A DNA stretch of 39,775 nt from a virus. Where the stretch lies: the IMG/VR virus record IMGVR_UViG_3300044545_000032. One strand, given 5' to 3'. Shown here in pieces: positions 1 to 22,816 of this stretch. The notes under the pieces are model-generated. The model ran no database searches. It was not told the origin of the DNA and saw only the letters and a program-made list of their open reading frames with translations. The position numbers and the translations under genes are program-made. The first letter of the stretch is position 1; every line of letters begins with the position of its first letter.

Positions 1-127
1 GTTGCCGGCGCGGACGGATCGGCGAAAAGCCTGATGGTGGACGGCGTGGTGGCCGGCGGCGATCGAGTCAAGGCGGAGTTCACGACGCAAATCGATTCAG
101 TGAGCGAAAGCGTCGCCAACGTGTCAG
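1..127. repeat. Terminal overlap: bases 1-127 are identical to 39649-39775 (closure of a circular or circularly permuted contig)
   Basis: Direct comparison of the two ends. The repeat lies inside one reading frame, which continues seamlessly across the junction. 127 is a common maximum assembler k-mer. Confidence 0.95.
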
Positions 128-561
128 AAGTGGTCTATGGGATCGACGGTCAAGTGCTGGACCTGTCCGAAAAAGTGGATTCTGCGAACACACAAATTAT
201 TGAAATTGTTTCAAAACAACTCAAAGCGGAGCAGACCGAAGAGGAGTTCCGCGCGAGCGTCACAGCCCTGCAAAAAGTCACAGAGGGTCAAAGCGAGACC
301 CTCAAGGAGTTCACCGAGTGGGTCGCCTTCGACGAGACCGGCATGGCCATCGGGAACTCGGACAGCGGGCGCAAGGTCAAGATCAACGAGCAGGCCGTGG
401 AGTTTAAAAACGCGGCAGGCGAGACCATCGCCCGCTTCGCTGAAAAGGCCGAGATCCACGACCTTGAAATCGCGGATGGCGGCACCTTTGCCATGGGCAA
501 CTGGGCGTGGATCCCGCGATCGAACGGCAATCTATCCCTGAAATGGATTGGAGGACACTAA
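1..561 (+). CDS. C-terminal part of a junction-spanning tail fibre / minor structural protein (gp58-like); the N-terminal part is at 39418-39775
   Basis: Frame 1 is open from base 1 and in phase with the open frame at the contig end. Central coiled-coil-like region. C-terminal motif FAMGNWAWIPRSNGNLSLKW is typical of siphophage gp58-type fibre proteins. Confidence 0.8.
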   Translation, partial: VAGADGSAKSLMVDGVVAGGDRVKAEFTTQIDSVSESVANVSEVVYGIDGQVLDLSEKVDSANTQIIEIVSKQLKAEQTEEEFRASVTALQKVTEGQSETLKEFTEWVAFDETGMAIGNSDSGRKVKINEQAVEFKNAAGETIARFAEKAEIHDLEIADGGTFAMGNWAWIPRSNGNLSLKWIGGH

Positions 562-2363
562 TGGCCAGCGGCACGATTAACGGATCAACCAACAATCAAT
601 ACATGGCGGTCCGGATCACCTGGTCGTCGTCGACCAACGTGGCGGGCAACTACAGCAACGTGACCATGCATCTGCAGTACCGGCGCACCAACGGCTATAC
701 GACGCACGGAACGGTGGCTGGATATATCAACATCAATGGGCAAACTGGAAATTATAGCAAATCGGTATCCATCGGCAGTGGCTGGGTGGATGTGGCCAGC
801 GGAACAATCCACGTAAATCACAACAGCGATGGCACGAAAAAATGTTATATCGGCGCATCCGGCGGCATCTCCGGGACGTCCTTTACGTTCACCTCCTGCG
901 GAAAAGTGGTTGCGCTGGACACCATCCCCCGGGTGTCCGGCATGGCGCTGTCCGCTTCGTCTGTGGACGCCGGGGTGGCCTTTACGGCGACCATCAGCCC
1001 CCACAGTGGCAGCTTCTCCCACTGGATCGATATCACCGGTGTGGGCGATCAAATCACCTATGAAGTGGCCGCTGGGGTTAAGACCTGCACGTGCGTGGTC
1101 CCCCGGGATCGCGTTGCTAAATGGTCAAACGCCACTGCGGCGACGGCGACGGTCTGGGTCAACACCAAAACCGGTGCCGGACATGACACTAAAATCGGTG
1201 TAGTTTCCAAAACGATCCAGATCACCACCCCCGCCGATATCGTCCCGTCCACCGGCGCCATCGCCATCGCGGACAGAAAAAACGCCGGCACCAACCTGTA
1301 CGGCGACGCGAACCTGTACGCGGCTGATTTTTCGGTCTTAACCGTCACCATCCCGGCAGCGGCCTATAGCGGCGACTTCGCGGATACGGCCACAATCAAA
1401 TCGATCACGACCACCTATGCCGGCAAGACCTATACTGGCAGCCCGGTCACACTCACGCCGACTGCCGCCGGCACGTCGGACATGGTGGTCACCGTCACTG
1501 ACAGCCGGGGACGCACGGCCACGACGACCAAAACGCTGACCGTTCGGGCGTACAGCCCGCCGACGATCCACGTCACCGCTTTGCGTTATGCTGACGCAGC
1601 CGGGCAGACCTCGGACGATACCGGGTCCTACGCCAAAGTGACGATCACCGGCACGCTGGATACGGCGGGTGTCACCGGTAACAGCGGAACGGTTACCTTA
1701 TCGTGGCAGGACATCGATCAGGCCGAAGCGGTACAGACCAAGACCTATACCGTCACCGATGGAACGTGGACCCTGTCGCAGATGATCGCGGCATCCGACA
1801 CCAAGGCCTATACCATCACGGCATCGATCGCCGACAAGGGCAGCACGCATCAAGCGGCCATGATCCTGTCCAACGGAGATGTGCCCGTGGACTTCCTCGC
1901 CGGCGGCAAGGGCGTGTGCTTCGGAGCCACGGCCACCCGCGAGGGTTTTGGCATTGAGATGGCCCCAATGTACGGAAAGGCCCTGCTGGACTATGTGCAT
2001 CCGATCGGTAGTTACTATATCAGCGATAACGCCACCAGCCCGGCAGAGATTTTCGGCGGGACGTGGGAGTCTATAACTGCTAAAGATTTTGCTGAATTTC
2101 AAGTAACGACAATGTTAATATCAGGATTGAAATCTAACAATGGCAAAACGATATCCCCACAGTCGCCAGGCGACAATTGGGAATTTATAACGCACTTGGC
2201 GACCTATACATCAGGTTTCATCAGTGCATCATATATTAACTCCCCAAATAATTTAAATGGACAATTGTGGGTGCTGAATCCACCGAATGATACAGTCGGT
2301 GTATGGGTGCCGACGCTGTGGGGGAAACGAAACCAAAACTACATGTGGAAACGCATCGCGTAG
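561..2363 (+). CDS. Tail fibre / receptor-binding protein with a DUF859-like N-terminal domain
   Basis: ATG at 561 overlaps the upstream TAA (taATG); RBS GGAGGA. N-terminus (NQYMAVRITWSS...NYSNVTMHLQY...ALDTIPR) resembles the siphovirus DUF859 family. C-terminus has HPIGSYYIS..FGGTWE and ends YMWKRIA, as in fibre tips. Confidence 0.8.
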   Translation: MASGTINGSTNNQYMAVRITWSSSTNVAGNYSNVTMHLQYRRTNGYTTHGTVAGYININGQTGNYSKSVSIGSGWVDVASGTIHVNHNSDGTKKCYIGASGGISGTSFTFTSCGKVVALDTIPRVSGMALSASSVDAGVAFTATISPHSGSFSHWIDITGVGDQITYEVAAGVKTCTCVVPRDRVAKWSNATAATATVWVNTKTGAGHDTKIGVVSKTIQITTPADIVPSTGAIAIADRKNAGTNLYGDANLYAADFSVLTVTIPAAAYSGDFADTATIKSITTTYAGKTYTGSPVTLTPTAAGTSDMVVTVTDSRGRTATTTKTLTVRAYSPPTIHVTALRYADAAGQTSDDTGSYAKVTITGTLDTAGVTGNSGTVTLSWQDIDQAEAVQTKTYTVTDGTWTLSQMIAASDTKAYTITASIADKGSTHQAAMILSNGDVPVDFLAGGKGVCFGATATREGFGIEMAPMYGKALLDYVHPIGSYYISDNATSPAEIFGGTWESITAKDFAEFQVTTMLISGLKSNNGKTISPQSPGDNWEFITHLATYTSGFISASYINSPNNLNGQLWVLNPPNDTVGVWVPTLWGKRNQNYMWKRIA

Positions 2364-2387
2364 AGTAGAAAGGAGCGTTGAGCATTT

Positions 2388-2840
2388 ATGAGAATTTTAG
2401 ATCAAGCCGGCCAAGAAATTTTTGATCCGGACCTGACCAAGGGGCATCTGGAAACGGAAACCATCGTCACCGCCCATCACGACGCGGTGCCGGCTTCGGC
2501 CGGGGTATCCCATATTGAAGTGGTCAAGACCTACGATAACGGCGGGCAGGACGTGGTGCGGGTGTGGGATGAAAAACCCACCGAGGCCAAAGCGGCCTAC
2601 GATGAGATCGAGACCATCCAGCGCTATATCCCTTACACGGAGCTGGAGCTGGCCCAGATGGGCGTGGAGCAGGACAAGGCGGAAAAGGCCGCGCTGACGC
2701 CGACGGGCGACGATCTGTCGAATGCCGCAGTCGATCTGGCTCAAGGCAACGCGGACAACGAGGACGCGATTGTTGAGCTGAGCGAGTACGTGACTACACT
2801 GGAAGAAAGAATTGCAGAACTGGAGGCAAACAATGGCTAA
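2388..2840 (+). CDS. Hypothetical protein, tail-fibre-associated position, C-terminal coiled coil
   Basis: 150-aa ORF with upstream AAAGGAG. Sits between the fibre and lysis genes. Confidence 0.6.
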   Translation: MRILDQAGQEIFDPDLTKGHLETETIVTAHHDAVPASAGVSHIEVVKTYDNGGQDVVRVWDEKPTEAKAAYDEIETIQRYIPYTELELAQMGVEQDKAEKAALTPTGDDLSNAAVDLAQGNADNEDAIVELSEYVTTLEERIAELEANNG

Positions 2841-2943
2841 AATATTTTATAAGCGGATTAAGGCGGAAATCATGACCATCGACGAAGTGCCGGCGAAATG
2901 GCGGCACAAGGTACAGGCCCTGCTGGACGCGGATAACGCGTAA
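2833..2943 (+). CDS. Small hypothetical protein (36 aa) of the kind found between fibre and holin genes
   Basis: My own translation: MAKIFYKRIKAEIMTIDEVPAKWRHKVQALLDADNA. GGAGG lies 6 nt upstream. Overlaps the preceding stop codon. Too short for the ORF track. Confidence 0.5.
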   Translation: MAKIFYKRIKAEIMTIDEVPAKWRHKVQALLDADNA

Positions 2944-2965
2944 AGCGAAAGAAGGTGACAGCACG

Positions 2966-3295
2966 ATGAGCCCTTTAGATATCAACCTACTGACCGCAGC
3001 AATCCCATCCCTGATCTCGGGGGTGGGATTGTATTTTGTGACTAAAAAACTCAACAAGCATCAAGCCGACCGCGACAAAAAAGAACAGGATCGCATTCAA
3101 AGCGAAATCCACATGATGGACACGGTGATCGCGACGGCCGAGTGTACCCGCGCCATCGCGAAAGCGGTCCAGCGCATCCCCGATGCCCACTGCAACGGCG
3201 ATATGCACGCGGCGCTGGCTGAAATGGATGATGCACTAAAAAAACAGCGAAAATTTTTGAGAGTTAAGTCAATCGAAAGCACCGAAAAGGAGTAA
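2966..3295 (+). CDS. Membrane-anchored protein, lysis-cassette associated (possible holin accessory)
   Basis: RBS GAAGGTGA. One N-terminal hydrophobic segment (LLTAAIPSLISGVGLYFV). Immediately upstream of the holin. Confidence 0.55.
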   Translation: MSPLDINLLTAAIPSLISGVGLYFVTKKLNKHQADRDKKEQDRIQSEIHMMDTVIATAECTRAIAKAVQRIPDAHCNGDMHAALAEMDDALKKQRKFLRVKSIESTEKE

Positions 3296-3299
3296 AAGC

Positions 3300-3608
3300 A
3301 TGACAAAAATTAACTGGAAACTGAGACTAAAAAACAAAGCGACGCTGGCAGCCCTGTGCGTGATCGCCCTGACAGTGGTCTATCAAATGCTGGGGTGGTG
3401 CGGCATTACCCCCGGAGTTACCCAGGATGCCGTGCAAAATGTGATCGAACTGATCGTCAAGGCCCTGGTGCTGCTGGGAGTCGTTGTCGACCCCACCACC
3501 GAGGGCGCCGGAGATAGCACCCAGGCGCTGGGCTACGACTATCCCGCGCAAACAGCCCCAACTGCGGCGGCCGAAGAAATTAAAAATACAGAAGAAGGTG
3601 ACGCATAA
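3300..3608 (+). CDS. Holin (Phage_holin_1 / phi LC3-LL-H type)
   Basis: [10 protein letters not shown] start, two hydrophobic segments, and the signature [25 protein letters not shown]. Confidence 0.8.
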
Positions 3609-4516
3609 TGTTATACGGAGTGGATATCTCTAATTATCAACGGTCGGTGGATTACAGTAAATATGCATTTTATATCATCAAAGCCAGCGAAGGTCGCACC
3701 TTCAAGGACCCAATGCTTGATAAGCACTATAATGCAGTTAAAGCAGCTGGGAAGCCATATGGTTTCTATCATTATGCTCGTCCAGAAAATAATTCTTGGA
3801 AAGCCGAAGCAGATCATTTCTTATCTTTGGTCGGCCATCATGCGCATAAAGCTATTTTTGCGCTGGATTGGGAAGGCAACGCCTTGCGATACAATTACTC
3901 CTGGGCCCTTAACTGGCTGAATTACGTTTATCAAAAGACGGGCGTCCGTCCTTTATTTTATTGCCAGGGCTCGGCTTTAAGCCGATATCCTCAAATTGCT
4001 AAAGCTAATTATGGCCTTTGGGTTGCAAGCTACGGCACTAAAAACCCGCAAAAGGGCTCCTGGGGCGCTTATGCGATTTGGCAGTACGGTGACAAACCCA
4101 TGGATATGGATGTGTTTAATGGGGATATTGGCACCTGGAACGCCTATGCCGGCGTGAAGGGAAACGCCAACAAAGGTCAATCGATCCCCGCGGCGACGGT
4201 GAAGGCAACCCGAAAATCCAATGCCGAAATCGCCCAGGAAGTCATCGCCGGCAAATGGGGCGACGGGAATACCCGAAAAGTGAAACTGGCGGCCGCTGGC
4301 TATGACTACAACGCGGTGCAGGCCGAAGTCAATCGGCGGCTGGGTGCAAGCGGCAGCAAAAAGGCTGCGGCGAAAGTGTATTACACCGTACGCAGAGGCG
4401 ACACGCTGTCGAAAATTGCGGCCAAGTATAAAACCACCTGGCAAAAATTGCAGCAGATGAATGGCATCCGGAATGCTAATAAAATTTATGTGGGACAGGT
4501 AATTCGCGTAAAATAA
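3608..4516 (+). CDS. Endolysin: GH25 muramidase + Cpl-7 (CW_7) + LysM
   Basis: YGVDISNYQ...IIKASEG...LDWE matches GH25. [32 protein letters not shown] matches CW_7. [16 protein letters not shown]...[15 protein letters not shown] matches LysM. The start overlaps the holin stop (taATG). Confidence 0.9.
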
Positions 4517-4565: not shown

Positions 4566-4593
4566 CCCACCTGTAACCAGGTGGGCTTTTTTT
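4566..4593 (+). terminator. Intrinsic terminator of the lysis operon
   Basis: Perfect 8-bp stem CCCACCTG / CAGGTGGG, loop TAAC, followed by a T7 run. Confidence 0.8.
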
Positions 4594-4648
4594 ATTGCGG
4601 AAAAACGACATTTTTTTATTTTTTTCAAAAAAAACAGGCCAAAAACTC

Positions 4649-4677
4649 TTGACAATACTATTAAATGATAGTATAAT
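4649..4677 (+). promoter_or_regulatory. Promoter-operator cassette, copy 1 (TTGACA-17-TATAAT with inverted repeat ATACTAT-TAAATG-ATAGTAT)
   Basis: Consensus -35 and -10 with a 17-bp spacer. A 20-bp inverted repeat (4655-4674) fills the spacer and overlaps the -10. Diverged copy of the 5198 and 6438 cassettes. Confidence 0.75.
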
Positions 4678-4709
4678 ATAGATATAAAATGAACAGGGGG
4701 AAACATAAA

Positions 4710-5057
4710 ATGACAAATTGGAAAAACGAAAATCTGGCAATCATTGATTTTGGCTACATCGGCAAAGACACAAAAACCGGAGAAATCGTTAGAACTGGCG
4801 ATGAAGAAAAAATGATTGCAAAGATCGAATTACCGGAGCTAACTGGAACGGAAAAACAAATAGCCTGGGCCATCGATATTCGTGCAGATAAAATTTACGA
4901 AATCGAACAGACAGTTGAAAGATTTGGCTTTGAAACTGCATTAAGCCAATTCAAAGTTGAAACAGCACAAGACGTTTTCGATATGATTCTAGCAGGTCCG
5001 AAATACAGCTGGTTGGCAACAACGGTAAACGCACACGACGTCATCGAAAAAAGATAA
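4710..5057 (+). CDS. Hypothetical protein (115 aa), accessory island unit 1
   Basis: ATG at 4710 lies 8 nt after GGGGGA, so it is preferred over the track start at 4689. No family recognised. Contains LTGTEKQIAWAIDIR. Confidence 0.6.
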   Translation: MTNWKNENLAIIDFGYIGKDTKTGEIVRTGDEEKMIAKIELPELTGTEKQIAWAIDIRADKIYEIEQTVERFGFETALSQFKVETAQDVFDMILAGPKYSWLATTVNAHDVIEKR

Positions 5058-5063
5058 AACAGC

Positions 5064-5092
5064 GGTGGGGGCGAAGCCTCCACCATTTTTTT
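5064..5092 (+). terminator. Intrinsic terminator after accessory unit 1
   Basis: Stem GGTGGGGGC / GCCTCCACC (one mismatch), loop GAA, followed by ATTTTTTT. Confidence 0.7.
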
Positions 5093-5197
5093 AATTAAAA
5101 GGGAAAAAATGACAGACGAAACAAAAGAACCGCTTTACAAAAAACACAGAAAGGCGGGTTTTAAATAGCGATTTTCGCAAAAAAATCCAAAAACATC

Positions 5198-5226
5198 TTG
5201 ACAATACTATTGAATAATAGTATAAT
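5198..5226 (+). promoter_or_regulatory. Promoter-operator cassette, copy 2 (TTGACA-17-TATAAT with inverted repeat ATACTATT-GAAT-AATAGTAT)
   Basis: The 55-bp block 5197-5251 is identical to 6437-6491. The operator palindrome is at 5204-5223. Confidence 0.8.
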
Positions 5227-5286
5227 ATAGACAAGATAAAGAGAGGGAAACAAGAAATATAACACCTCTCAAGAAAGGAAAGAAAA

Positions 5287-5856
5287 ATGAAACCTTACGA
5301 ATACGAAAAAGAAAATTTAACAAAAGAGCAAAAATCTAACATTAAGATTTGGGTTCAAAAAAGTAAAGAAGCTAATTTCAATATTAACTATGGATTTTCA
5401 GCAAATCAAAACATTGAACGCGGCGACTATGAAGCATTGGCTATCTCAAACTACCAAGGATATATGGAGGGTAGAAATTCAAATAAAACTTTCGACGAAT
5501 GGTTGATTTGTGGAATCGAATATGCTGAAAAAAGCATCAAAGAACACAACGAGGCCTGCGAAAGCGCAAAAAGTATTCGCGATTTCGATTTCGCATTTGA
5601 AAATGAAAAAGTCGGATTTCTTGAAAAGCTTCAGTTAGATAAGAAAATTGATAAGATTAAAATCAATTTGATAAAAAACGAACAGAATTCAGTTAAACTT
5701 GAGGCAATCCGAATTGCCACCGGAAAAGCCCATGCGTTTGTCAGAAAAGCGGAACAGCAGCCACAGGTACGCGACAGCTCCGCCGGAGTTACTGGCCCGA
5801 TCTATGATGATGATAGCAATCCGACGTACTACGACGAAAAAATGAACGAAATTTAA
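5287..5856 (+). CDS. Hypothetical protein (189 aa), accessory island unit 2
   Basis: RBS AAAGGAAAG. AT-rich coding. No family recognised. Confidence 0.6.
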   Translation: MKPYEYEKENLTKEQKSNIKIWVQKSKEANFNINYGFSANQNIERGDYEALAISNYQGYMEGRNSNKTFDEWLICGIEYAEKSIKEHNEACESAKSIRDFDFAFENEKVGFLEKLQLDKKIDKIKINLIKNEQNSVKLEAIRIATGKAHAFVRKAEQQPQVRDSSAGVTGPIYDDDSNPTYYDEKMNEI

Positions 5857-5869
5857 GAGGAGAGAAAAA

Positions 5870-6235
5870 ATGAAACCTTATAGAGATTTAACAAAATTCC
5901 GAATTTACCAGGTCCGGTTAGGTTTTTTCGGCAGGTTTAAAGAATTTGAACCCCGGGTTGTCCAGAACAACCCGGATACTTTTATCGACAGAATTGGCGA
6001 TTTTAAGAGCGAAAAAGACGCCGTAGAAGTTTTTGATCACAGCTGCTCCGAAACGGAATTTTCCACTTTTTTTCAAGAACCGGAGCATAAAAACATCACT
6101 AGGCTCTTCTTGACGAAGGAAAAGGTTAGGATTTTTAACTTCGGTAATAATCAAGGAGAACAAGTTTTATCTCAAGAAATTTTGAAAGAATCTGTTTTGA
6201 CACCTTCGGAGGCAAAAATATGGGAAAACTTATAA
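5870..6235 (+). CDS. Hypothetical protein (121 aa), accessory island unit 2
   Basis: RBS GAGGAGAG lies 6 nt upstream. No family recognised. Confidence 0.6.
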   Translation: MKPYRDLTKFRIYQVRLGFFGRFKEFEPRVVQNNPDTFIDRIGDFKSEKDAVEVFDHSCSETEFSTFFQEPEHKNITRLFLTKEKVRIFNFGNNQGEQVLSQEILKESVLTPSEAKIWENL

Positions 6236-6441
6236 GCATTACAGAATACGCGAAAAAACATAATCGCAACCGCTACACGGTTATACAAAAAATCGAACGC
6301 GGCGGGTTTAAGACGGCCCGAAAAATTGGCAGAATGTGGGTGATCGATGAGGACGAACCTTATATCGACGGCCGCGTGAAAAGCGGAAAGTACAAAGGCT
6401 TTCGCAAAAAAAATTCAAAAAAATCTCCAAAAGCCCCTTGA
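6220..6441 (+). CDS. Small HTH DNA-binding protein (excisionase/MerR-like HTH_17 type) with a basic tail; candidate regulator of the repeated operator, or Xis
   Basis: ISITEYAKKHNRNRYTVIQKIERGGFKTARKIGRMWVIDEDE fits the excisionase-family HTH pattern. Overlaps the upstream ORF by 16 nt. The stop TGA lies inside the -35 of promoter copy 3. Confidence 0.65.
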   Translation: MGKLISITEYAKKHNRNRYTVIQKIERGGFKTARKIGRMWVIDEDEPYIDGRVKSGKYKGFRKKNSKKSPKAP

Positions 6442-6466
6442 CAATACTATTGAATAATAGTATAAT
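6438..6466 (+). promoter_or_regulatory. Promoter-operator cassette, copy 3 (identical to copy 2)
   Basis: TTGACA 6438-6443, operator 6444-6463, TATAAT 6461-6466. Identical 55-bp block to copy 2. Confidence 0.8.
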
Positions 6467-6513
6467 ATAGACAAGATAAAGAGAGGGAAACCTCAAAGAA
6501 AAGGAGAAAAAAG

Positions 6514-6801
6514 ATGAAGTACACAAGAAAACAATTAGTAGCTATGATTTTAGATGAAAATTCTAAAATCTACGACCAGCTTGGCGGCGACGCCGAAATG
6601 GTCAAAGAAATCAAAAATCTAGAAGCCGGCCGAGACTACGACGGCAGCGAAAATTGGAAATTCAACTATCAAGAAAATCCAAACGCCGCCGAAAACATCA
6701 GAATTGCTCAAGAAGATTTAGCGGTAGAAATTGCTCAAGAACTTGAAGGCCTCGGGCTGATGGCCGAAGATGAAGACGGCGAGTGGGAACTGAAATTCTA
6801 G
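6514..6801 (+). CDS. Strongly acidic hypothetical protein (95 aa), accessory island unit 3
   Basis: RBS AAGGAG. By my count 23 D/E versus 10 K/R. C-terminus is AEDEDGEWELKF. Confidence 0.6.
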   Translation: MKYTRKQLVAMILDENSKIYDQLGGDAEMVKEIKNLEAGRDYDGSENWKFNYQENPNAAENIRIAQEDLAVEIAQELEGLGLMAEDEDGEWELKF

Positions 6802-6839
6802 GGGCGGGTAACCGCCCCTTCGAAAAAAAGGAGAAAAAA

Positions 6840-7019
6840 ATGAAAAGGCAGCTGTTAGACGCGATGCCGTTCGACAAGGTTTTCTATGTCGACGGCAATG
6901 AAGAATTTTGTCATGCAACGGGGTATGAAGTATATTTCGGTGAAGACGGAACTAATGACCCCGCCGATTGGTGGAATGAGTATATTGATAGCAACGGAGA
7001 CTATCAATATGGTCGATAA
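6840..7019 (+). CDS. Strongly acidic, aromatic-rich hypothetical protein (59 aa), accessory island unit 3
   Basis: ATG at 6840 after AAAGGAGA, preferred over the track start at 6783. 13 D/E versus 4 K/R. Confidence 0.5.
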   Translation: MKRQLLDAMPFDKVFYVDGNEEFCHATGYEVYFGEDGTNDPADWWNEYIDSNGDYQYGR

Positions 7020-7050
7020 AATTTATCCATATTATTATCTATTAAAATTT

Positions 7051-7080
7051 AGGGGTTAAAGGCCCCTATTTACTTTTTTT
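7051..7080 (+). terminator. Terminator-like hairpin after accessory unit 3
   Basis: Stem AGGGG / CCCCT followed by ATTTACTTTTTTT. The T-tract overlaps the next promoter. Confidence 0.5.
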
Positions 7081-7097
7081 ATAAATTTTGGTATAAT
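7070..7097 (+). promoter_or_regulatory. Promoter with extended -10 (TTACTT-16-TGgTATAAT) for the candidate small RNA
   Basis: Sequence match to sigma-A consensus with a TGn extension. No protein gene lies downstream. Confidence 0.6.
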
Positions 7098-7103
7098 GTA
7101 AAT

Positions 7104-7276
7104 ACATTCTGGGGGCGCAGGCATGCGTGAAAAGGAAGGCTTGAGCTCGGCTGGACCCGGAACCCACTTCGCGCCAAGCGCACCGCAATATCCGCGGGAA
7201 TAATTATTGCGAAGTGGTTAATTTCAAGACGCGCCAGCTTCCTTTCTTTATTTTATCGAAATGGCGCGTTTTTTTA
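7104..7276 (+). ncRNA. Candidate structured small RNA (about 170 nt), family unknown
   Basis: Bounded by the 7070 promoter and by terminator ACGCGCCA (7229-7236) / TGGCGCGT (7262-7269) plus T7. Internal helices are CACTTCGC / GCGAAGTG and CCGC / GCGG. Only a 26-codon ORF is present. Confidence 0.45.
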
Positions 7277-7277
7277 T

Positions 7278-7297
7278 TTACGCTACTTTTACGCTAC
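7278..7297 (+). repeat. Arm-type integrase site candidates, left arm: TTACGCTAC x2, 11-bp phasing
   Basis: Direct repeats at 7278-7286 and 7289-7297. The same motif recurs on the other side of the core. Confidence 0.55.
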
Positions 7298-7337
7298 CTT
7301 GCTAAAATTCTTTGATTTTATGCATATTTTATACTCT

Positions 7338-7382
7338 CTCTTAATCAGGGTGTCCAGGGTTCGAGTCCCTGATGGCCCACCA
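7338..7382 (+). other. attP core: 3' portion of a tRNA-Lys(CUU) gene (anticodon loop to CCA)
   Basis: The segment reads CTCTTAA, TCAGG, GTGTC, CAGGG, TTCGAGT, CCCTG, ATGGCCC, A, CCA. These parse as anticodon loop, stem, variable loop, T-arm, acceptor stem and CCA. It closely parallels Bacillus tRNA-Lys. The 5' half of the tRNA is absent (upstream ACTCT cannot pair with TCAGG). Confidence 0.75.
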
Positions 7383-7397
7383 TCTCAAAATGTAGGA

Positions 7398-7430
7398 AAA
7401 CCGCCATTTTAGGCGGTTTCTTTGCGTTTA
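7398..7430 (+). terminator. Hairpin terminator downstream of the tRNA fragment; also placed to end int transcription from the opposite strand
   Basis: Stem AAACCGCC / GGCGGTTT, loop ATTTTA, with T-rich flanks on both strands. Confidence 0.6.
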
Positions 7431-7486
7431 AGATATTTTTTTATGTCAATTCGATTTTGCTGTGTTTCGCTCTGTTGCGCTGTGTT

Positions 7487-7506
7487 TTACGTTACTTTTA
7501 CGTTAC
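7487..7506 (+). repeat. Arm-type integrase site candidates, right arm: TTACGTTAC x2, 11-bp phasing
   Basis: Direct repeats at 7487-7495 and 7498-7506, in the same orientation as the left-arm pair. They overlap the int stop codon and last codons. Confidence 0.55.
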
Positions 7507-8608
7507 TTTTTTGAATGGTGAAAAATTCATAGTCTGGAAAAATTGTATTTTCCTTAAGCCATTCTGTAGTATAGTGCGAATAGTTCGCGTCGGTTAACCC
7601 TTTTAAGGAATGGCCGCCTTGAAGATCAACCACGCGCCGATCAGGATTGACTTCGCGCATCAAGGTGAACCATGTGTGACGCAACTCGCCGGGGAGCAGC
7701 GCCGGAATGCTGGGATAAGCATCTGAAAAATCCGCTATAAATTTTTTCCACGGTCCGCGCGTCCATGCCCGGGGTCCCATGAAGTCCCGACGGCTGCGGT
7801 TTGAATGTGGTGGAAAAAGGAAAGTGCCTTTGTGCCCGTTCACGCGCCCGTTGAGATAGAAAAGTGCATCAGGGTCAAGCAAGATGGTTCGCAAAGCCGT
7901 TGCTGTTTTGCCGGCGGTTTTAACTTCCGGATAACCGGCGGCATCGGTGATAGTCCGGTGCAGGGTGAGTGTGCCTTGGGAAAAGTCAAAATCGGAAGCG
8001 GGTTTAATGCCTATCATCTCGGACGGGCGCAAGCCAGTGTGGAGCAGGATATATGCGCCCAAACCGTGAGGGTGCTGCTTTGCGAACTCGGAAAATATTT
8101 TCGCCTGTTCGATGGTGTACGCGCGTTTTTGTTTTGGCTGTGTGCCACCTGTCACCCGGTAGGACCGCACCGGGTTGTGAAAAATGTGGCCGTTATCACA
8201 CGCCGCTTTCATGATGGCCGAAAAGGTGTTGCGGACTTTTCGCAACATAGAAGGTGAGTAGTTCGTACCGTCCGACTTTTTAAATTTTGCGAAAAATTGG
8301 CGCACATGTGTCGGCTTTATGGATTGAATCGGAATTTTCCCAAAGTGTTTGTTTAGGTAGTCGATGGCCAGTTCGTAGCCGTTTAGGGTGGCGGCGCTTA
8401 GGCCGTTGTTTGCCGGATAAAGTTTAAACCACTCTTCGGCCCAATCGCGAAACAGGATCACATGCTCAATTTCTGGGCTGTTCAAATCCTGCAAAAATTT
8501 GTTGGCCTTTTCGCGGGCAATGCGCTTTGTTTTGCCGTAAAAACTTTTTTGCCGGCGGATGCCATCAAGATCGGTGTAATTTAATATATATCTATATTTA
8601 CTCGCCAT
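7487..8608 (-). CDS. int: Tyrosine recombinase / phage integrase
   Basis: 373 aa. N-terminal SAM-like domain. C-terminal HTGLRPSE, LRHTWFT and GHS...YSHY motifs (R..HxxR..Y). Adjacent to the tRNA-derived attP. Confidence 0.92.
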   Translation of the reverse strand: MASKYRYILNYTDLDGIRRQKSFYGKTKRIAREKANKFLQDLNSPEIEHVILFRDWAEEWFKLYPANNGLSAATLNGYELAIDYLNKHFGKIPIQSIKPTHVRQFFAKFKKSDGTNYSPSMLRKVRNTFSAIMKAACDNGHIFHNPVRSYRVTGGTQPKQKRAYTIEQAKIFSEFAKQHPHGLGAYILLHTGLRPSEMIGIKPASDFDFSQGTLTLHRTITDAAGYPEVKTAGKTATALRTILLDPDALFYLNGRVNGHKGTFLFPPHSNRSRRDFMGPRAWTRGPWKKFIADFSDAYPSIPALLPGELRHTWFTLMREVNPDRRVVDLQGGHSLKGLTDANYSHYTTEWLKENTIFPDYEFFTIQKSNVKVT

Positions 8609-8729: not shown

Positions 8730-8765
8730 CCGCCCCGGTGTTGGTGGCACTGGGGCGGTTTTTTT
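8730..8765 (+). terminator. Strong intrinsic terminator oriented on the + strand, between int and hicB
   Basis: An 11-bp stem CCGCCCCGGTG / CACTGGGGCGG followed by T7 on the + strand. On the - strand no U-tract follows the hairpin. Confidence 0.6.
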
Positions 8766-9180
8766 ATTGTGCAATATGCAATTTTTCAATTAATGCGTCT
8801 TGCAAAACTTGTGAAAAATTCAAATTATGATCGGACGCGGTGGCTTCCAGCCATGCCGGAATGGTTAAATTTTTCTTGACTGTTTGCTTTCCATATCGCC
8901 TTGAATACTCCGCAATATCTAAAACGATAAACTGGACAAATCCGTTTAGGCCGATATTCTCATCGGGTTCGATAACGCCGCGAGCACTTGGCGGGGGAAC
9001 GGGGCGTTTATCTTCCAATTCTCCCAAAATCCAGCCGCCGGCTGCGTCTTCGGCCATCCGGATTGCATCTGCCATACTTTCCCCCTCGGTGGTGCAGCCC
9101 GGAAGATCGGGAACTTCAACAGTGTATCCGCCGCTGTCATTTGGATAAAAAACAGCGGGATAAGCAATTCTATTTGCCAT
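8764..9180 (-). CDS. hicB: HicB-family antitoxin (HicB fold + C-terminal RHH-like domain)
   Basis: YPAVFYPNDSGGYTVEVPDLPGCTTEGESMADAIRMAEDA is the canonical HicB N-terminus. RBS AGGAG. Directly downstream of hicA. Confidence 0.85.
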   Translation of the reverse strand: MANRIAYPAVFYPNDSGGYTVEVPDLPGCTTEGESMADAIRMAEDAAGGWILGELEDKRPVPPPSARGVIEPDENIGLNGFVQFIVLDIAEYSRRYGKQTVKKNLTIPAWLEATASDHNLNFSQVLQDALIEKLHIAQ

Positions 9181-9215
9181 AATAAACTCCTATCTATAAA
9201 ATACAAGCAATGGGG

Positions 9216-9401
9216 CTATTTCAGCCCCGCTTGCTTGCGAATACTTTTTACCGTTTGCTTGTCAAGGTCTTTTCCACCGTGATTTGGAATTGTGACCTTT
9301 CCCGGTTTCGTTGGATGCCGGTATTGATAGTGCGATCCGACGGCTTTCACGAAATACCATCCATCCGCTTCAACCATTTTGACAACCTCTCGAAATCTCA
9401 T
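9216..9401 (-). CDS. hicA: HicA-family mRNA interferase toxin (61 aa)
   Basis: MRFREVVKMVEADGWYFVKAVGSHYQYRHPTKPGKVTIPNHGGKDL matches HicA. The start at 9401 follows GGGGGAAAG, so the track start at 9476 is rejected. Confidence 0.85.
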   Translation of the reverse strand: MRFREVVKMVEADGWYFVKAVGSHYQYRHPTKPGKVTIPNHGGKDLDKQTVKSIRKQAGLK

Positions 9402-9422
9402 CTTTCCCCCTTTCTTGATTAT

Positions 9423-9473
9423 ATTATACGCATTATACGTATAAAAGTCAAGGGAAAAAATACGTATTATGCG
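9423..9473 (-). promoter_or_regulatory. hicAB promoter (TTGACT-17-TATAAT on the - strand) with flanking 14-bp inverted repeats
   Basis: On + coordinates the -10 is at 9423-9428 and the -35 at 9446-9451. CGCATTATACGTAT (9429-9442) and ATACGTATTATGCG (9460-9473) form an imperfect inverted repeat bracketing the -35. Confidence 0.6.
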
Positions 9474-9518
9474 CATTTTTTATCGAGTGTATTTTTAAAT
9501 TGTAAAAAATATTTTGTA

Positions 9519-11089: not shown

Positions 11090-11168
11090 TATAAAAAATA
11101 AAAAAATACGGTTTTCCCGTTGACAATTCCAAAGAGACAAGCTATAATTCAATTAACGGTTAAACCGT
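11066..11168. promoter_or_regulatory. Three 13-bp operator-like palindromes in the cI/cro switch
   Basis: ACGACATTGCCGT (11066-11078), ACGGTTTTCCCGT (11108-11120) and ACGGTTAAACCGT (11156-11168). All fit ACGnn-N3-nnCGT dyad symmetry. They overlap the two divergent promoters. Confidence 0.55.
11120..11148 (+). promoter_or_regulatory. Early rightward promoter (TTGACA-17-TATAAT)
   Basis: Perfect consensus hexamers at 11120-11125 and 11143-11148, upstream of cro. Confidence 0.75.
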
Positions 11169-12584: not shown

Positions 12585-12742
12585 TTGAAAAAACAACATT
12601 TTCAAATCCAGCATTTGGTAAGCCGAAAATTCAAATCAGCTTCAAACTGTCGCAAAAAAGTTTTGAAAAATTAAAAAAATCAAAACATTGGGGCTGGGTC
12701 GAACGGTATATCGACTATTTACAAAGAAAGGAAGAACCATGA
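12581..12742 (+). CDS. Small hypothetical protein (53 aa), translationally coupled on both sides
   Basis: My own translation: MIEKTTFSNPAFGKPKIQISFKLSQKSFEKLKKSKHWGWVERYIDYLQRKEEP. ATGA overlaps at both ends. Confidence 0.45.
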   Translation: MIEKTTFSNPAFGKPKIQISFKLSQKSFEKLKKSKHWGWVERYIDYLQRKEEP

Positions 12743-12999
12743 CAAGCAAAGATGCAGCCATCTTGGCGAAAAAGGAAAGAGACACGCATTTTTGGGATGC
12801 CGTTTCGCGAGATAACGCGGCGGTGATCACAGTCGAAGATGCCGCAGACGCGCTGCAAGTAACAGCCAATTCGCTGCGATGTGGGTTGGAAGATGGAACG
12901 CTTTCGACAATTGGCTTCATGCACCGGGGGACGCGAAAGAACAACAGATATTGCGTAATTCTGCGGTCGAAGCTGATCGACTGGTACACGAACAGGTGA
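12739..12999 (+). CDS. Small DNA-binding protein (excisionase-like HTH), function unassigned
   Basis: ITVEDAADALQVTANSLRCGLEDGTL...ILRSKLIDWY resembles the HTH_17 pattern. ATG at 12739 after AAAGGAAGA. Confidence 0.55.
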   Translation: MTSKDAAILAKKERDTHFWDAVSRDNAAVITVEDAADALQVTANSLRCGLEDGTLSTIGFMHRGTRKNNRYCVILRSKLIDWYTNR

Positions 13000-21778: not shown

Positions 21779-22032
21779 AGAAGTCAGTCATATTAACGTT
21801 GGCCATCACGGCCAGCATGATCATCGCCGGTGTGGTGGCGGTACAGGCCAAGACTGTGACGCCGCCGAGCAAGCCGGAGTTTTCGGCCTACGAGGCGACC
21901 TTTGAGAAAGGCGACAGCGGGATTAAGAAAGTGATCGTGCTGCAAGACAATAAGCACAAGCAGGAATTTATATTGGTGCCGGGGTACGGGATGCAGTTCA
22001 GATGGCAGGATTCAGGAGAAGTAGGAGAATAA
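21775..22032 (+). CDS. Secreted or membrane-anchored small protein (85 aa)
   Basis: N-terminal signal-like segment MKKSVILTLAITASMIIAGVVAVQA. RBS GAGGAGGG. Confidence 0.55.
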   Translation: MKKSVILTLAITASMIIAGVVAVQAKTVTPPSKPEFSAYEATFEKGDSGIKKVIVLQDNKHKQEFILVPGYGMQFRWQDSGEVGE

Positions 22033-22036
22033 CGAC

Positions 22037-22141
22037 ATGAAGGTATTTATTAGTCAATCAATGAGAAACAAAACGATAGAAGAAGAACTGGCAGAACGAA
22101 AAGAAATTGTTCGGCAGATTAAAGCAGAATATGGAAATTGA
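22037..22141 (+). pseudogene. 34-codon ORF that looks like the N-terminal remnant of a larger gene
   Basis: My own translation: MKVFISQSMRNKTIEEELAERKEIVRQIKAEYGN followed by a stop. It resembles the start of nucleoside 2-deoxyribosyltransferase-like phage proteins, from memory only. Confidence 0.25.
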
Positions 22142-22171
22142 AATTATTTACGATTAGAGGAGGGGATAACG

Positions 22172-22261
22172 ATGCTGAAAGTCATTGGAATTGAGATCAT
22201 CGCAGCGTTGGCTGTACTGATCTGGTATGAGGTTTTGTGTGTGAAAGATAAATTGAAATAA
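22172..22261 (+). CDS. 29-aa hydrophobic peptide
   Basis: AGAGGAGGGG RBS 6 nt upstream. MLKVIGIEIIAALAVLIWYEVLCVKDKLK. Confidence 0.4.
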   Translation: MLKVIGIEIIAALAVLIWYEVLCVKDKLK

Positions 22262-22276
22262 AATTGTTTTTATTTA

Positions 22277-22305
22277 TTGACATTGATAAATAATAATTTT
22301 ATAAT
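22277..22305 (+). promoter_or_regulatory. Consensus promoter (TTGACA-17-TATAAT) for the late regulator gene
   Basis: Hexamers at 22277-22282 and 22300-22305 in an AT-rich spacer. Confidence 0.65.
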
Positions 22306-22357
22306 ATTATTGGGTTATTATAATCAAAATAATAAAATTCAAATTTAAGTGGTAATT

Positions 22358-22816
22358 ATGACAAAAGAAGAGTTATTTAAAATCAAATGGTTAAAACAAT
22401 ATCACTATCTAAAAGGCAGGGCTGCTGATTGTGAAAGAAGAATTAAAGTTATCAAAGAGGATATGTATAATAAAGACCTACACCCTCAAAGAATAACTGG
22501 TATGCCAACGGGAAATGGTGGTGGCAATTGCGAACTGGAAAAGATGCTCGATCAGTTGGACAAAGTCATCCATTCCGAAATATATTATAAGCACAAAGCT
22601 TATAATCAAAACGAGCAAATCCACAAAGTTATATGTAATTCAACCAATGATCAGCTTTTACAATGGCTTCTCGAGCTTCGTTATCTTAGCTGGGACGAAC
22701 GTTTTAACTGCCCTTTAACCTGGGAACAGATCGGCCATCGAATTGGTTACGAATCAACCCGTGTCAAGCAACTGCACCACAAAGCATTAAGCACAATACA
22801 GATTCCAAAAGAGTGA
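22358..22816 (+). CDS. Late-gene transcriptional regulator (RinA/ArpU-like, sigma-70 region-4-type HTH)
   Basis: The C-terminal segment LTWEQIGHRIGYESTRVKQLHHKALSTI is a region-4-like HTH. Sits immediately upstream of the packaging genes. Confidence 0.65.
   Translation: MTKEELFKIKWLKQYHYLKGRAADCERRIKVIKEDMYNKDLHPQRITGMPTGNGGGNCELEKMLDQLDKVIHSEIYYKHKAYNQNEQIHKVICNSTNDQLLQWLLELRYLSWDERFNCPLTWEQIGHRIGYESTRVKQLHHKALSTIQIPKE

Follow-up and report, generated by a model that had tools for sequence, protein, structure and literature searches.

The DNA analysed here, IMG/VR record IMGVR_UViG_3300044545_000032 (39,775 nt; hereafter the window), is the complete, circularly permuted genome of a temperate siphophage. 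The space from its lysin terminator to attP is occupied by an island of six small genes, in which three cassettes stand in tandem, each opened by a consensus promoter with a palindrome in its spacer. We read this island as a self-repressed three-cassette array, in which a 73-aa winged-helix helix-turn-helix (HTH) protein encoded by the second cassette would hold down all three promoters and the cargo would most likely counter host defences (probability of this combined reading about 0.6). Its two parts differ in strength: comparison with related loci makes it probable that the HTH protein binds the palindrome and represses the three promoters, and the proposal that the cargo is mainly anti-defence is tentative, at somewhat less than even odds. 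Related loci and phages are designated by L numbers throughout.

The repeated blocks described in the initial annotation were recovered by repeat alignment: 5197-5251 and 6437-6491 agree in every base over a length of exactly 55 nt, and the diverged copy at 4648-4703 matches at 33 of the 36 positions that comprise the -35 to -10 region and the bases after it. At lower identity they belong to an 89-nt repeat family, D1 (4625-4713, 5174-5262 and 6414-6502; 69, 100 and 87%), of which the shared A-rich upstream stretch, also noted then, is a part. The three promoters (P1, P2 and P3) all score 12/12 as TTGACA-17-TATAAT and are arranged head to tail, driving, as the coordinates of the open reading frames (ORFs) bear out, 1, 3 and 2 small ORFs, respectively. 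Each has a 20-bp dyad that occupies its spacer and extends over the first three -10 bases. The dyad ATACTAT-N6-ATAGTAT occurs at these three sites only in the 39.8-kb window, with 0.07 occurrences expected from shuffled sequences. The window search found it neither in the CI/Cro region, where another palindrome (ACGGTTAAACCGT) comes after the rightward promoter at 11120, nor elsewhere in the phage. By its likeness to the known consensus, the A-tract of P1 may act as an UP element; similar A/T tracts precede the homologous promoters of other loci, and that of P3 (6414-6437) doubles as coding sequence for the C-terminal tail of the HTH protein, whose gene overlaps the end of ORF3 by 16 nt and has its TGA stop inside the P3 -35 hexamer. 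The hairpin terminators closing cassette 1 and the whole array were found again by a terminator scan, and the AT-richness of the island was borne out by its GC content of 38.2%, compared with 54.5% for the lysis and tail genes at positions 1-4516 and 47.2% for the whole window.

In IMG/VR the exact 29-nt promoter pattern had zero matches and a degenerate pattern three, of which that in L002 was set aside as a chance match, L002 being an unrelated AT-rich phage full of consensus promoters. A possible remnant of the 3' end of the HTH gene upstream of P2 was also rejected; the alignment past the A-tract is too weak to claim. The predicted P3 transcript carries a short stem-loop near its 5' end (6483-6494, z about -3.2), in addition to that in the P2 leader (Table 1), and comparable leader hairpins are present in L009. 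The P2 and P3 stem-loops may stabilise the mRNA or may be RNA-level regulatory sites, as reported for Aca1 and Aca2.

Homologues of the HTH protein were collected from 66 IMG/VR contigs and 28 bacterial genomes, giving about 100 phage or prophage loci of Clostridia. The nearest come from Pseudoramibacter porci, P. alactolyticus and metagenome-assembled genomes of Eubacteriaceae, and gut or oral Eubacteriaceae are taken as the hosts of the phage; more distant ones come from Lachnospiraceae and Oscillospiraceae. Wherever gene calls were available, the HTH gene lies directly downstream of an endolysin or holin gene at the prophage end, and an upstream lysin homologue was detectable in at least 26 of 106 loci. 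Most related loci share the order promoter, one to three small ORFs, HTH gene, and in most the closest upstream promoter on the same strand has an 11-12/12 consensus with a 17-bp spacer and lies 0.3-1 kb from the HTH gene. In the loci that have a palindrome its centre always falls between spacer positions 10 and 11, and the arms vary by phage (ATACTATTGA/ATAATAGTAT in the window; ATACGCGCGA/ACGAGCGTAT in L017; ATACGCCGAT/ATAGGCGTAT in L088; TACTACGCT/AGCGTAGTA in L045; CATGAT/ATCATG in L009; ACACTAT/ATAGTGT in L103). When only the inner seven dyad pairs were counted, i.e., those not fixed by the -10 element, five or more were complementary in 37 of 57 HTH-proximal promoters and in 13 of 63 other strong promoters of the same loci (about 10 of these 13 are extra copies within the same islands). 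The arms change through compensatory substitutions, and about 45 operator types were found around the fixed centre.

Within one phage the operator copies change in concert, so that each phage has one operator. The window has ATACTATT... in three copies and L017 has ATACGCGCGAACGAGCGTAT in two, one upstream of its ORF1 homologue and one just past its HTH gene; the HTH protein of L017 is 67% identical to that of the window and has a different recognition helix (helix 2). Concerted change of the same kind was seen in L071 and L041, and in L018 tandem HTH paralogues are each accompanied by a distinct operator. Across 45 unique protein/operator pairs, the distance between operators was correlated with the distance between recognition regions (Mantel r = 0.65, p = 2e-4; once the rest of the protein was accounted for, the partial correlation was 0.40, and the converse partial was 0.14). 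Of all protein columns, residue 19, which lies in the first, N-terminal turn of helix 2, shared the most mutual information with positions 5, 6 and 7 of the half-site (A goes with TAC, Y with TAT, R with GC, and I or V with A[TAC]C). These pairings recur among proteins that differ in length and domain architecture, which argues against pure shared ancestry. The positions that set specificity in the two half-sites are about 9-10 bp apart, i.e., one helical turn, a spacing that we infer would suit two recognition helices in successive major grooves. The initial annotation had suggested that a single repressor co-regulates the three cassettes; with the co-occurrence of gene and palindrome, the concerted change of the arms and the covariation of the recognition helix, the comparative evidence that one autorepressor would control all of them is strong.

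The 73-aa protein itself matches HTH_17 weakly (E 5e-3) and phrog_629 ("excisionase"; E 1.8e-5). Its AlphaFold2 model (predicted local distance difference test score, pLDDT, 78 overall and about 90 for residues 1-45) has the beta-alpha-alpha-beta-beta topology of the excisionase/MerR-type winged helix, with no long helix after the wing. The closest folds in the PDB are lambda Xis on DNA (1rh6; root-mean-square deviation 1.7 A over 51 residues), BldC, RdfS, Pukovnik Xis and P2 Cox, and the closest viral folds in BFVD are "Excise" or HTH proteins. A profile of the family gave nothing significant against PDB sequences, so that only the fold comparison was informative, and tblastn against GenBank phages returned a hypothetical protein of Bifidobacterium phage BigBern1 as its sole match. 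Among the homologues the wing and the C-terminal RVKSGKYKNWRKK tail are conserved and the helix 1-helix 2 region is variable. The winged-helix domain was also found fused to several unrelated C-terminal domains (L025-L052, L059-L062, L107/L109, L018/L031 and L090): the fusions include 138-184-aa proteins, proteins with Zn-ribbon repeats (L018, L031), a 646-aa protein (L090) and, in L107 and L109, 180-182-aa proteins whose C-terminal half is nucleotidyltransferase-like by eye. They recall the fusions of an HTH domain to an anti-CRISPR (Acr) protein in AcrIIA1 and AcrIIA13-15.

In the circuit that we propose, three accessory-gene cassettes in tandem would be under one phage-encoded autorepressor. 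Each would open with a maximal sigma-A promoter (A-tract, TTGACA, 17-bp spacer, TATAAT and AT-rich discriminator), and since the promoters have all of these features no activator should be needed and the host RNA polymerase should suffice. The HTH protein would sit as a symmetric pair on the 20-bp dyad and, because it would then lie across the spacer and the first three -10 bases, should exclude RNA polymerase, giving negative autoregulation at P2 and co-repression of P1 and P3. On entry of the phage DNA into a repressor-free cell, a burst of cargo would be followed by shut-down to a low, autoregulated set-point, in the lysogen as well, and the cargo would act against host defences.

Among the cargo, ORF1 is a concrete candidate for an anti-nuclease or anti-CRISPR-like protein, as judged from a sequence motif that links it to two Acrs against Cas3-mediated cleavage. 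ORF1 belongs to phrog_16123 (4e-10), which is unannotated in PHROG. Searched against 177,635 distinct PDB sequences, a profile of the motif region matched two families only, AcrIF23 (E 1.4e-4; profile positions 30-71 aligned to AcrIF23 51-93) and AcrIE7 (four sequences, E 4e-3 to 8e-3; first 23 residues of AcrIE7 only). The motif in ORF1 is G-[TS]-E-K-Q-x-x-W-A, and the form common to the three proteins is L-x-G-[TS]-x-[KR]-Q-x-x-W-A-x-x-I. Both AcrIF23 (PDB 7FIA), an inhibitor of DNA cleavage by Cas2/3 (PMC9270243), and AcrIE7 (PDB 9N3X and others) stop Cas3-type DNA cleavage, and the invariant Lys of the ORF1 motif aligns with K6 of AcrIE7, which is needed for binding of single-stranded DNA and for shielding DNA from Cas3 (PMC12002350). 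The two share the motif with ORF1 but no whole-protein homology, about 25 residues being alike. In GenBank phages ORF1 found nothing by tblastn. A homologue with 86% identity directly precedes the HTH gene of L017, and one with 44% identity in another phage (L117) is paired with an XRE HTH protein instead. The motif also occurs in the first cargo of L054/L055 and in 378-418-aa proteins, where it follows a Cys/His-rich start (L065 514-3184, L014 3436-5998); these adjoin SNF2-family helicases (L014-16, L065) and, in L013-16, also a PAPS-reductase/DUF3440 gene and a ParB_N gene, a neighbourhood like that reported for distant acrIF23 homologues in operons under the control of Aca (anti-CRISPR-associated) proteins (PMC13551039).

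The five non-HTH ORFs had no family in Pfam, NCBIfam or PADLOC, in keeping with the earlier view that only the small HTH protein could be assigned, and none of the island proteins had a defence match in PADLOC; a sub-threshold BrxP match (E 0.0025) in scans of the six proteins was not trusted. All six are named "hypothetical protein" in databases, and the family is near-absent from cultured-phage records. Mostly, the cargo proteins are small, acidic and cytoplasmic. For ORF2 a set of 1.84 billion representative proteins yielded just nine relatives, and all nine keep the C-terminal motif GVTGPIYDDDxNPTYY after a low-confidence linker (window 5779-5856), a conserved peptide that looks like a short linear docking motif for a partner. 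The fold searches on predicted structures proposed earlier, which placed the HTH protein among the excisionases, gave no PDB match for the confident helical-bundle model of ORF2. Sequence searches of the PDB with ORF3, ORF5 and ORF6 gave nothing meaningful; ORF5 has a weak by-eye similarity to the N-terminal part of an acidic 159-aa cargo protein of L017.

Gene content between the conserved promoters, a point marked for checking in the initial annotation, does vary in the relatives L001, L004, L017 and L112, and on sequence comparison the cargo appears as modular and exchangeable between related phages. A different lysin is followed directly by an island-type promoter and ORF2 in L001. The closest relative, L004, also has a different lysin and keeps the same five genes, with ORF6 replaced by an unrelated 61-aa ORF. 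Its counterpart of operator copy 2 retains the arms and has a changed centre (ATACTATTGAACAATAGTAT), and its P3 (L004 8215-8240) lacks the spacer and operator (ttgacttttataat, TTGACttTTATAAT) and is hence inactivated, so that the P3 copy is dispensable and transcription of ORF5 must there depend on read-through from P2. L017 shares lysin family and attP with the window and has the order promoter, ORF1, HTH gene, promoter; past its second promoter come two membrane peptides and then the acidic 159-aa protein. L112 (Logan SRR31316415, 2372-2475) is a natural deletion variant on the same phage backbone, in which the array was lost between two hairpins: the first half of the hairpin that terminates the lysin gene now joins the one that follows ORF5, upstream of ORF6, and with three promoters and five genes gone ORF6 is the sole island gene, without a promoter of its own. 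Two hydrophobic peptides of 33-36 aa (e.g., ...GLLVAWISKHI), with a hairpin after each, were observed as the first cargo of related islands (L009 5727-5999, L017 5282-5560). When 20 cargo proteins of related loci were searched with Pfam, only ADP-ribosylglycohydrolase, DUF7698 and DUF3560 were found. The ADP-ribosylglycohydrolase (L041 2291-3370, Pfam E 1e-68) is cargo between a dyad-bearing promoter and the HTH gene, and it could reverse ADP-ribosylation by a host defence.

Several observations weigh against the reading of the island as a self-repressed, anti-defence array. On the side of the regulator, the HTH protein has an excisionase fold and its gene lies near attP; with 73 aa it has no evident dimerisation element, though the proposed site is a dyad, and the C-terminal 25 residues of its model are of low confidence. 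Some members of the family, e.g., L021, L022 and L085 (P. alactolyticus), have no convincing centred palindrome, several HTH loci have no detectable consensus promoter, and the covariation statistics are inflated to some degree because related sequences are not independent. On the side of the cargo, four of the five proteins are without a functional lead from family, sequence or fold searches, and the membrane peptides of related loci would fit superinfection exclusion or host-directed functions better than a classical Acr. The Acr similarity of ORF1 spans just 22-26 residues, with the rest of ORF1 unrelated, and lies in AcrIF23 outside the mapped Cas2/3-binding loop, so that the match is a lead and not an assignment. 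An anti-defence role, to which this short motif, guilt by association and the modular turnover of the cargo point, is thus plausible but unproven.

The same circuit might instead carry lysogenic-conversion or superinfection-exclusion "morons", which the prophage would express to the advantage of the lysogen. The lysogenic-conversion region of Firmicutes siphophages lies between lysin and attR, has its own promoter and terminator and deviates in base composition, and the position of the island, its own promoters and terminators and its low GC fit this classical region. The membrane peptides that open the cargo of related loci and a Ricin-lectin protein farther downstream in L010-12, past the attachment-site sequence, would suit it too, as would the steady low expression in the lysogen that an autorepressor would yield. 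Against this stand the combination of a maximal promoter with a negative autoregulator, which is the signature of genes expressed in a burst on entry, the PDB matches of ORF1, which are Acr proteins only, the lack of defence matches in PADLOC and the mostly small, acidic and cytoplasmic cargo, and we consider morons unlikely as the main content. A duplicated strong promoter and nothing else, with the palindrome as a by-product of the -10 element (ATAGTATAAT) and no dedicated regulator, is extremely improbable. It is true that the TAT of the -10 element fixes three outer dyad pairs and that the unrelated AT-rich L002 has one similar promoter among its eleven consensus promoters, but the inner seven pairs are complementary too, with compensatory changes around a fixed centre, and the dyads are strongly enriched beside the HTH gene relative to other consensus promoters, so that the comparative sequence data disfavour this explanation.

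If the 73-aa protein were primarily an excisionase, i.e., a recombination directionality factor (RDF), the dyads would be unrelated to it or would stem from a repressor function that is secondary, as in P2 Cox or 186 Apl. Its closest folds (lambda Xis, RdfS, Pukovnik Xis and P2 Cox) and its PHROG 629 match speak for this, and so does the location of its gene, which faces the convergent integrase gene across attP at 0.9 kb from the attP core and in L009 ends about 80 bp from that core. However, no cluster of half-sites (ATACTATT with at most one mismatch, or TACTAT) was found in the attP region (7020-7490), and the sites are inverted repeats set precisely in promoter spacers and not direct repeats of att arms. 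The family has paralogue pairs (L018) and fusions to unrelated C-terminal domains, its members in L013-16 have no integrase seen nearby, and the real Xis could be encoded by another ORF with a weak HTH_17 match, at 12688-12999 in the early region. A primary role as excisionase therefore appears quite improbable, although an additional RDF role, and hence a dual function like that of P2 Cox, is possible because the protein has the excisionase fold and adjoins attP.

As a self-repressed array, the island would work like an acr-aca locus, its nearest parallels being the multi-operon Aca cases and the Listeria acrIIA1 loci. The likeness to acr-aca operons had been drawn in the initial annotation; the architecture proved apt, and the anti-defence role that came with it is the weaker part, being suggested by the short ORF1 motif, association and turnover. 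Shared with acr-aca operons are a strong promoter with an inverted-repeat operator, small variable cargo before a small DNA-binding gene at the operon end, the same operator repeated before neighbouring operons, and the pairing of one cargo with different regulators elsewhere (ORF1 with an XRE HTH protein in L117). For most Aca families it has been predicted that one Aca controls several adjacent operons, and for Aca14 this was demonstrated (PMC13551039); the multi-operon cases include Aca11/13 and Aca14 as well as predictions for Aca1/Aca2 (PMC13551039, PMC12282945, PMC9410906). By contrast, the regulator of the island is an excisionase/MerR-type winged helix and not an XRE-type HTH or ribbon-helix-helix protein, and the island has a single dyad exactly in a 17-bp spacer, three head-to-tail cassettes and no validated acr gene. 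Because there is no validated Acr and the fold class of the regulator differs, the array cannot be filed as a member of the acr-aca systems. The terms excisionase, winged and HTH_17 are not mentioned in a 2026 survey of Aca proteins. The Listeria prophage acrIIA loci resemble the island in lying downstream of the endolysin at the prophage end, with a palindromic operator in the promoter and an HTH autorepressor inside the locus (10.1101/787200; PMC9410906), but AcrIIA1 is an Acr fused to an XRE-like HTH and the island regulator is a stand-alone 73-aa Xis-fold protein with no sequence relationship to it, and there is one promoter there and three here.

Two other groups of regulators invite comparison. 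MerR regulators have a related winged-helix fold and a dyad operator between -35 and -10, but their spacers are 19-20 bp, they activate by DNA distortion, and they have a coiled-coil dimerisation helix and an effector domain; since the spacer here has the optimal 17 bp and the HTH protein lacks the MerR dimerisation helix and effector domain, repression and not activation is to be expected. P2 Cox, 186 Apl, Streptomyces BldC and RdfS share the small beta-alpha-alpha-beta-beta fold and offer a precedent for promoter repression. These Xis-fold regulators occupy direct repeats in arrays and oligomerise in head-to-tail fashion, whereas the island sites are single inverted repeats.

Negative autoregulation of the kind proposed here has been shown for Aca proteins. 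To our knowledge no characterised Aca comes from Clostridia (Eubacteriaceae). Phages of Clostridia account for much of the gut phage community, and few of their anti-defence genes are, as far as we know, characterised. A searchable signature for guilt-by-association mining consists of a consensus promoter whose spacer holds a centred dyad and, downstream of it, a winged-helix HTH gene encoding a KSGKYKNWRKK tail; about 100 loci with dozens of cargo families have been collected. The roughly 45 natural regulator/operator pairs point to a simple code by which a very small DNA-binding fold would recognise its site and on which orthogonal repressors could be built, and proteins of excisionase fold annotated as "Xis" near attP may instead be transcription regulators. 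As a bolder proposal, possible yet clearly below an even bet, the Xis-fold winged helices with the RVKSGKYKNWRKK tail might make up a class of Aca-type repressors that is new and widespread among phages of Clostridia, with specificity set largely by one recognition-helix residue and with operators that flag hundreds of anti-defence genes, and ORF1 might be the first AcrIE7/AcrIF23-like module against Cas3-type nucleases in Firmicutes.

Table 1. Features of the island and its flanks (positions in the window).
Feature	Position	Strand	Remarks
Endolysin, GH25/CW_7/LysM domains	3608-4516		left flank of island
Intrinsic terminator of endolysin gene	4566..4593	+	left island boundary; terminator scan
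A-tract, UP-element-like, upstream of P1	4625..4648	+	part of repeat D1
Promoter P1	4649..4677	+	-35 4649-4654, -10 4672-4677, 17-bp spacer, 12/12
Putative operator copy 1, ATACTATTAAATGATAGTAT	4655..4674	.	position and symmetry kept across family
ORF1, 115 aa, motif LPELTGTEKQIAWAIDIR	4710..5057	+	ribosome-binding site GGGGG 9 nt upstream
Intrinsic terminator, end of cassette 1	5064..5092	+	9-bp stem, 7 G-C pairs, T run
A-tract upstream of P2	5174..5197	+	repeat D1
Promoter P2	5198..5226	+	-35 5198-5203, -10 5221-5226, 12/12
Putative operator copy 2, ATACTATTGAATAATAGTAT	5204..5223	.	dyad search
Stem-loop in 5' leader of P2 transcript (GAGAGG...CCTCTC)	5241..5270	+	-9.2 kcal/mol, z = -3.8
ORF2, 189 aa, all-helical orphan	5287..5856	+	AlphaFold2 pLDDT 82
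ORF3, 121 aa, orphan	5870..6235	+	shared with L004 only
Excisionase-fold winged-helix protein, 73 aa, proposed Aca-like autorepressor	6220..6441	+	last gene of P2 operon
Promoter P3	6438..6466	+	-35 6438-6443, -10 6461-6466, 12/12
Putative operator copy 3, same sequence as copy 2	6444..6463	.	
ORF5, 95 aa, acidic (pI 4.2), orphan	6514..6801	+	
ORF6, 59 aa, acidic (pI 4.1), orphan	6840..7019	+	
Terminator-like hairpin, end of array	7050..7080	+	terminator scan
attP core, tRNA 3'-end-like	7349-7382		same 34-mer adjoins integrase of relative L017
Tyrosine integrase	7487-8608	minus	right flank of island

DNA similarity to GenBank phages was limited to a 44-49-nt match to the tRNA-like attP core, with none in the island, and ARAGORN found no full tRNA at this core. 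A HicB antitoxin/HicA toxin pair (8764-9476, minus strand) lies directly beside the integrase gene within the lysogeny module. No credible RNA family was detected by an Rfam scan of the window and the island, at the gathering threshold and then at E up to 1.

A small separate transcription unit (7069-7278, plus strand) stands between the island and attP and has an extended -10 promoter (TTTACT-17-TGgTATAAT, 7069-7097), a GC-richer stretch of about 170 nt, a strong terminator at about 7226-7272 and a possible 26-codon ORF. The unit has no Rfam match, and the fold of the candidate small RNA (7104-7278) has a z-score of only -1.5; it is kept only in near-identical phages (L111-L115). A further 12/12 consensus promoter, without an island-type dyad, was observed at 22277-22305, just upstream of the packaging genes and within an AT-rich patch (22001-22500, GC 0.30).

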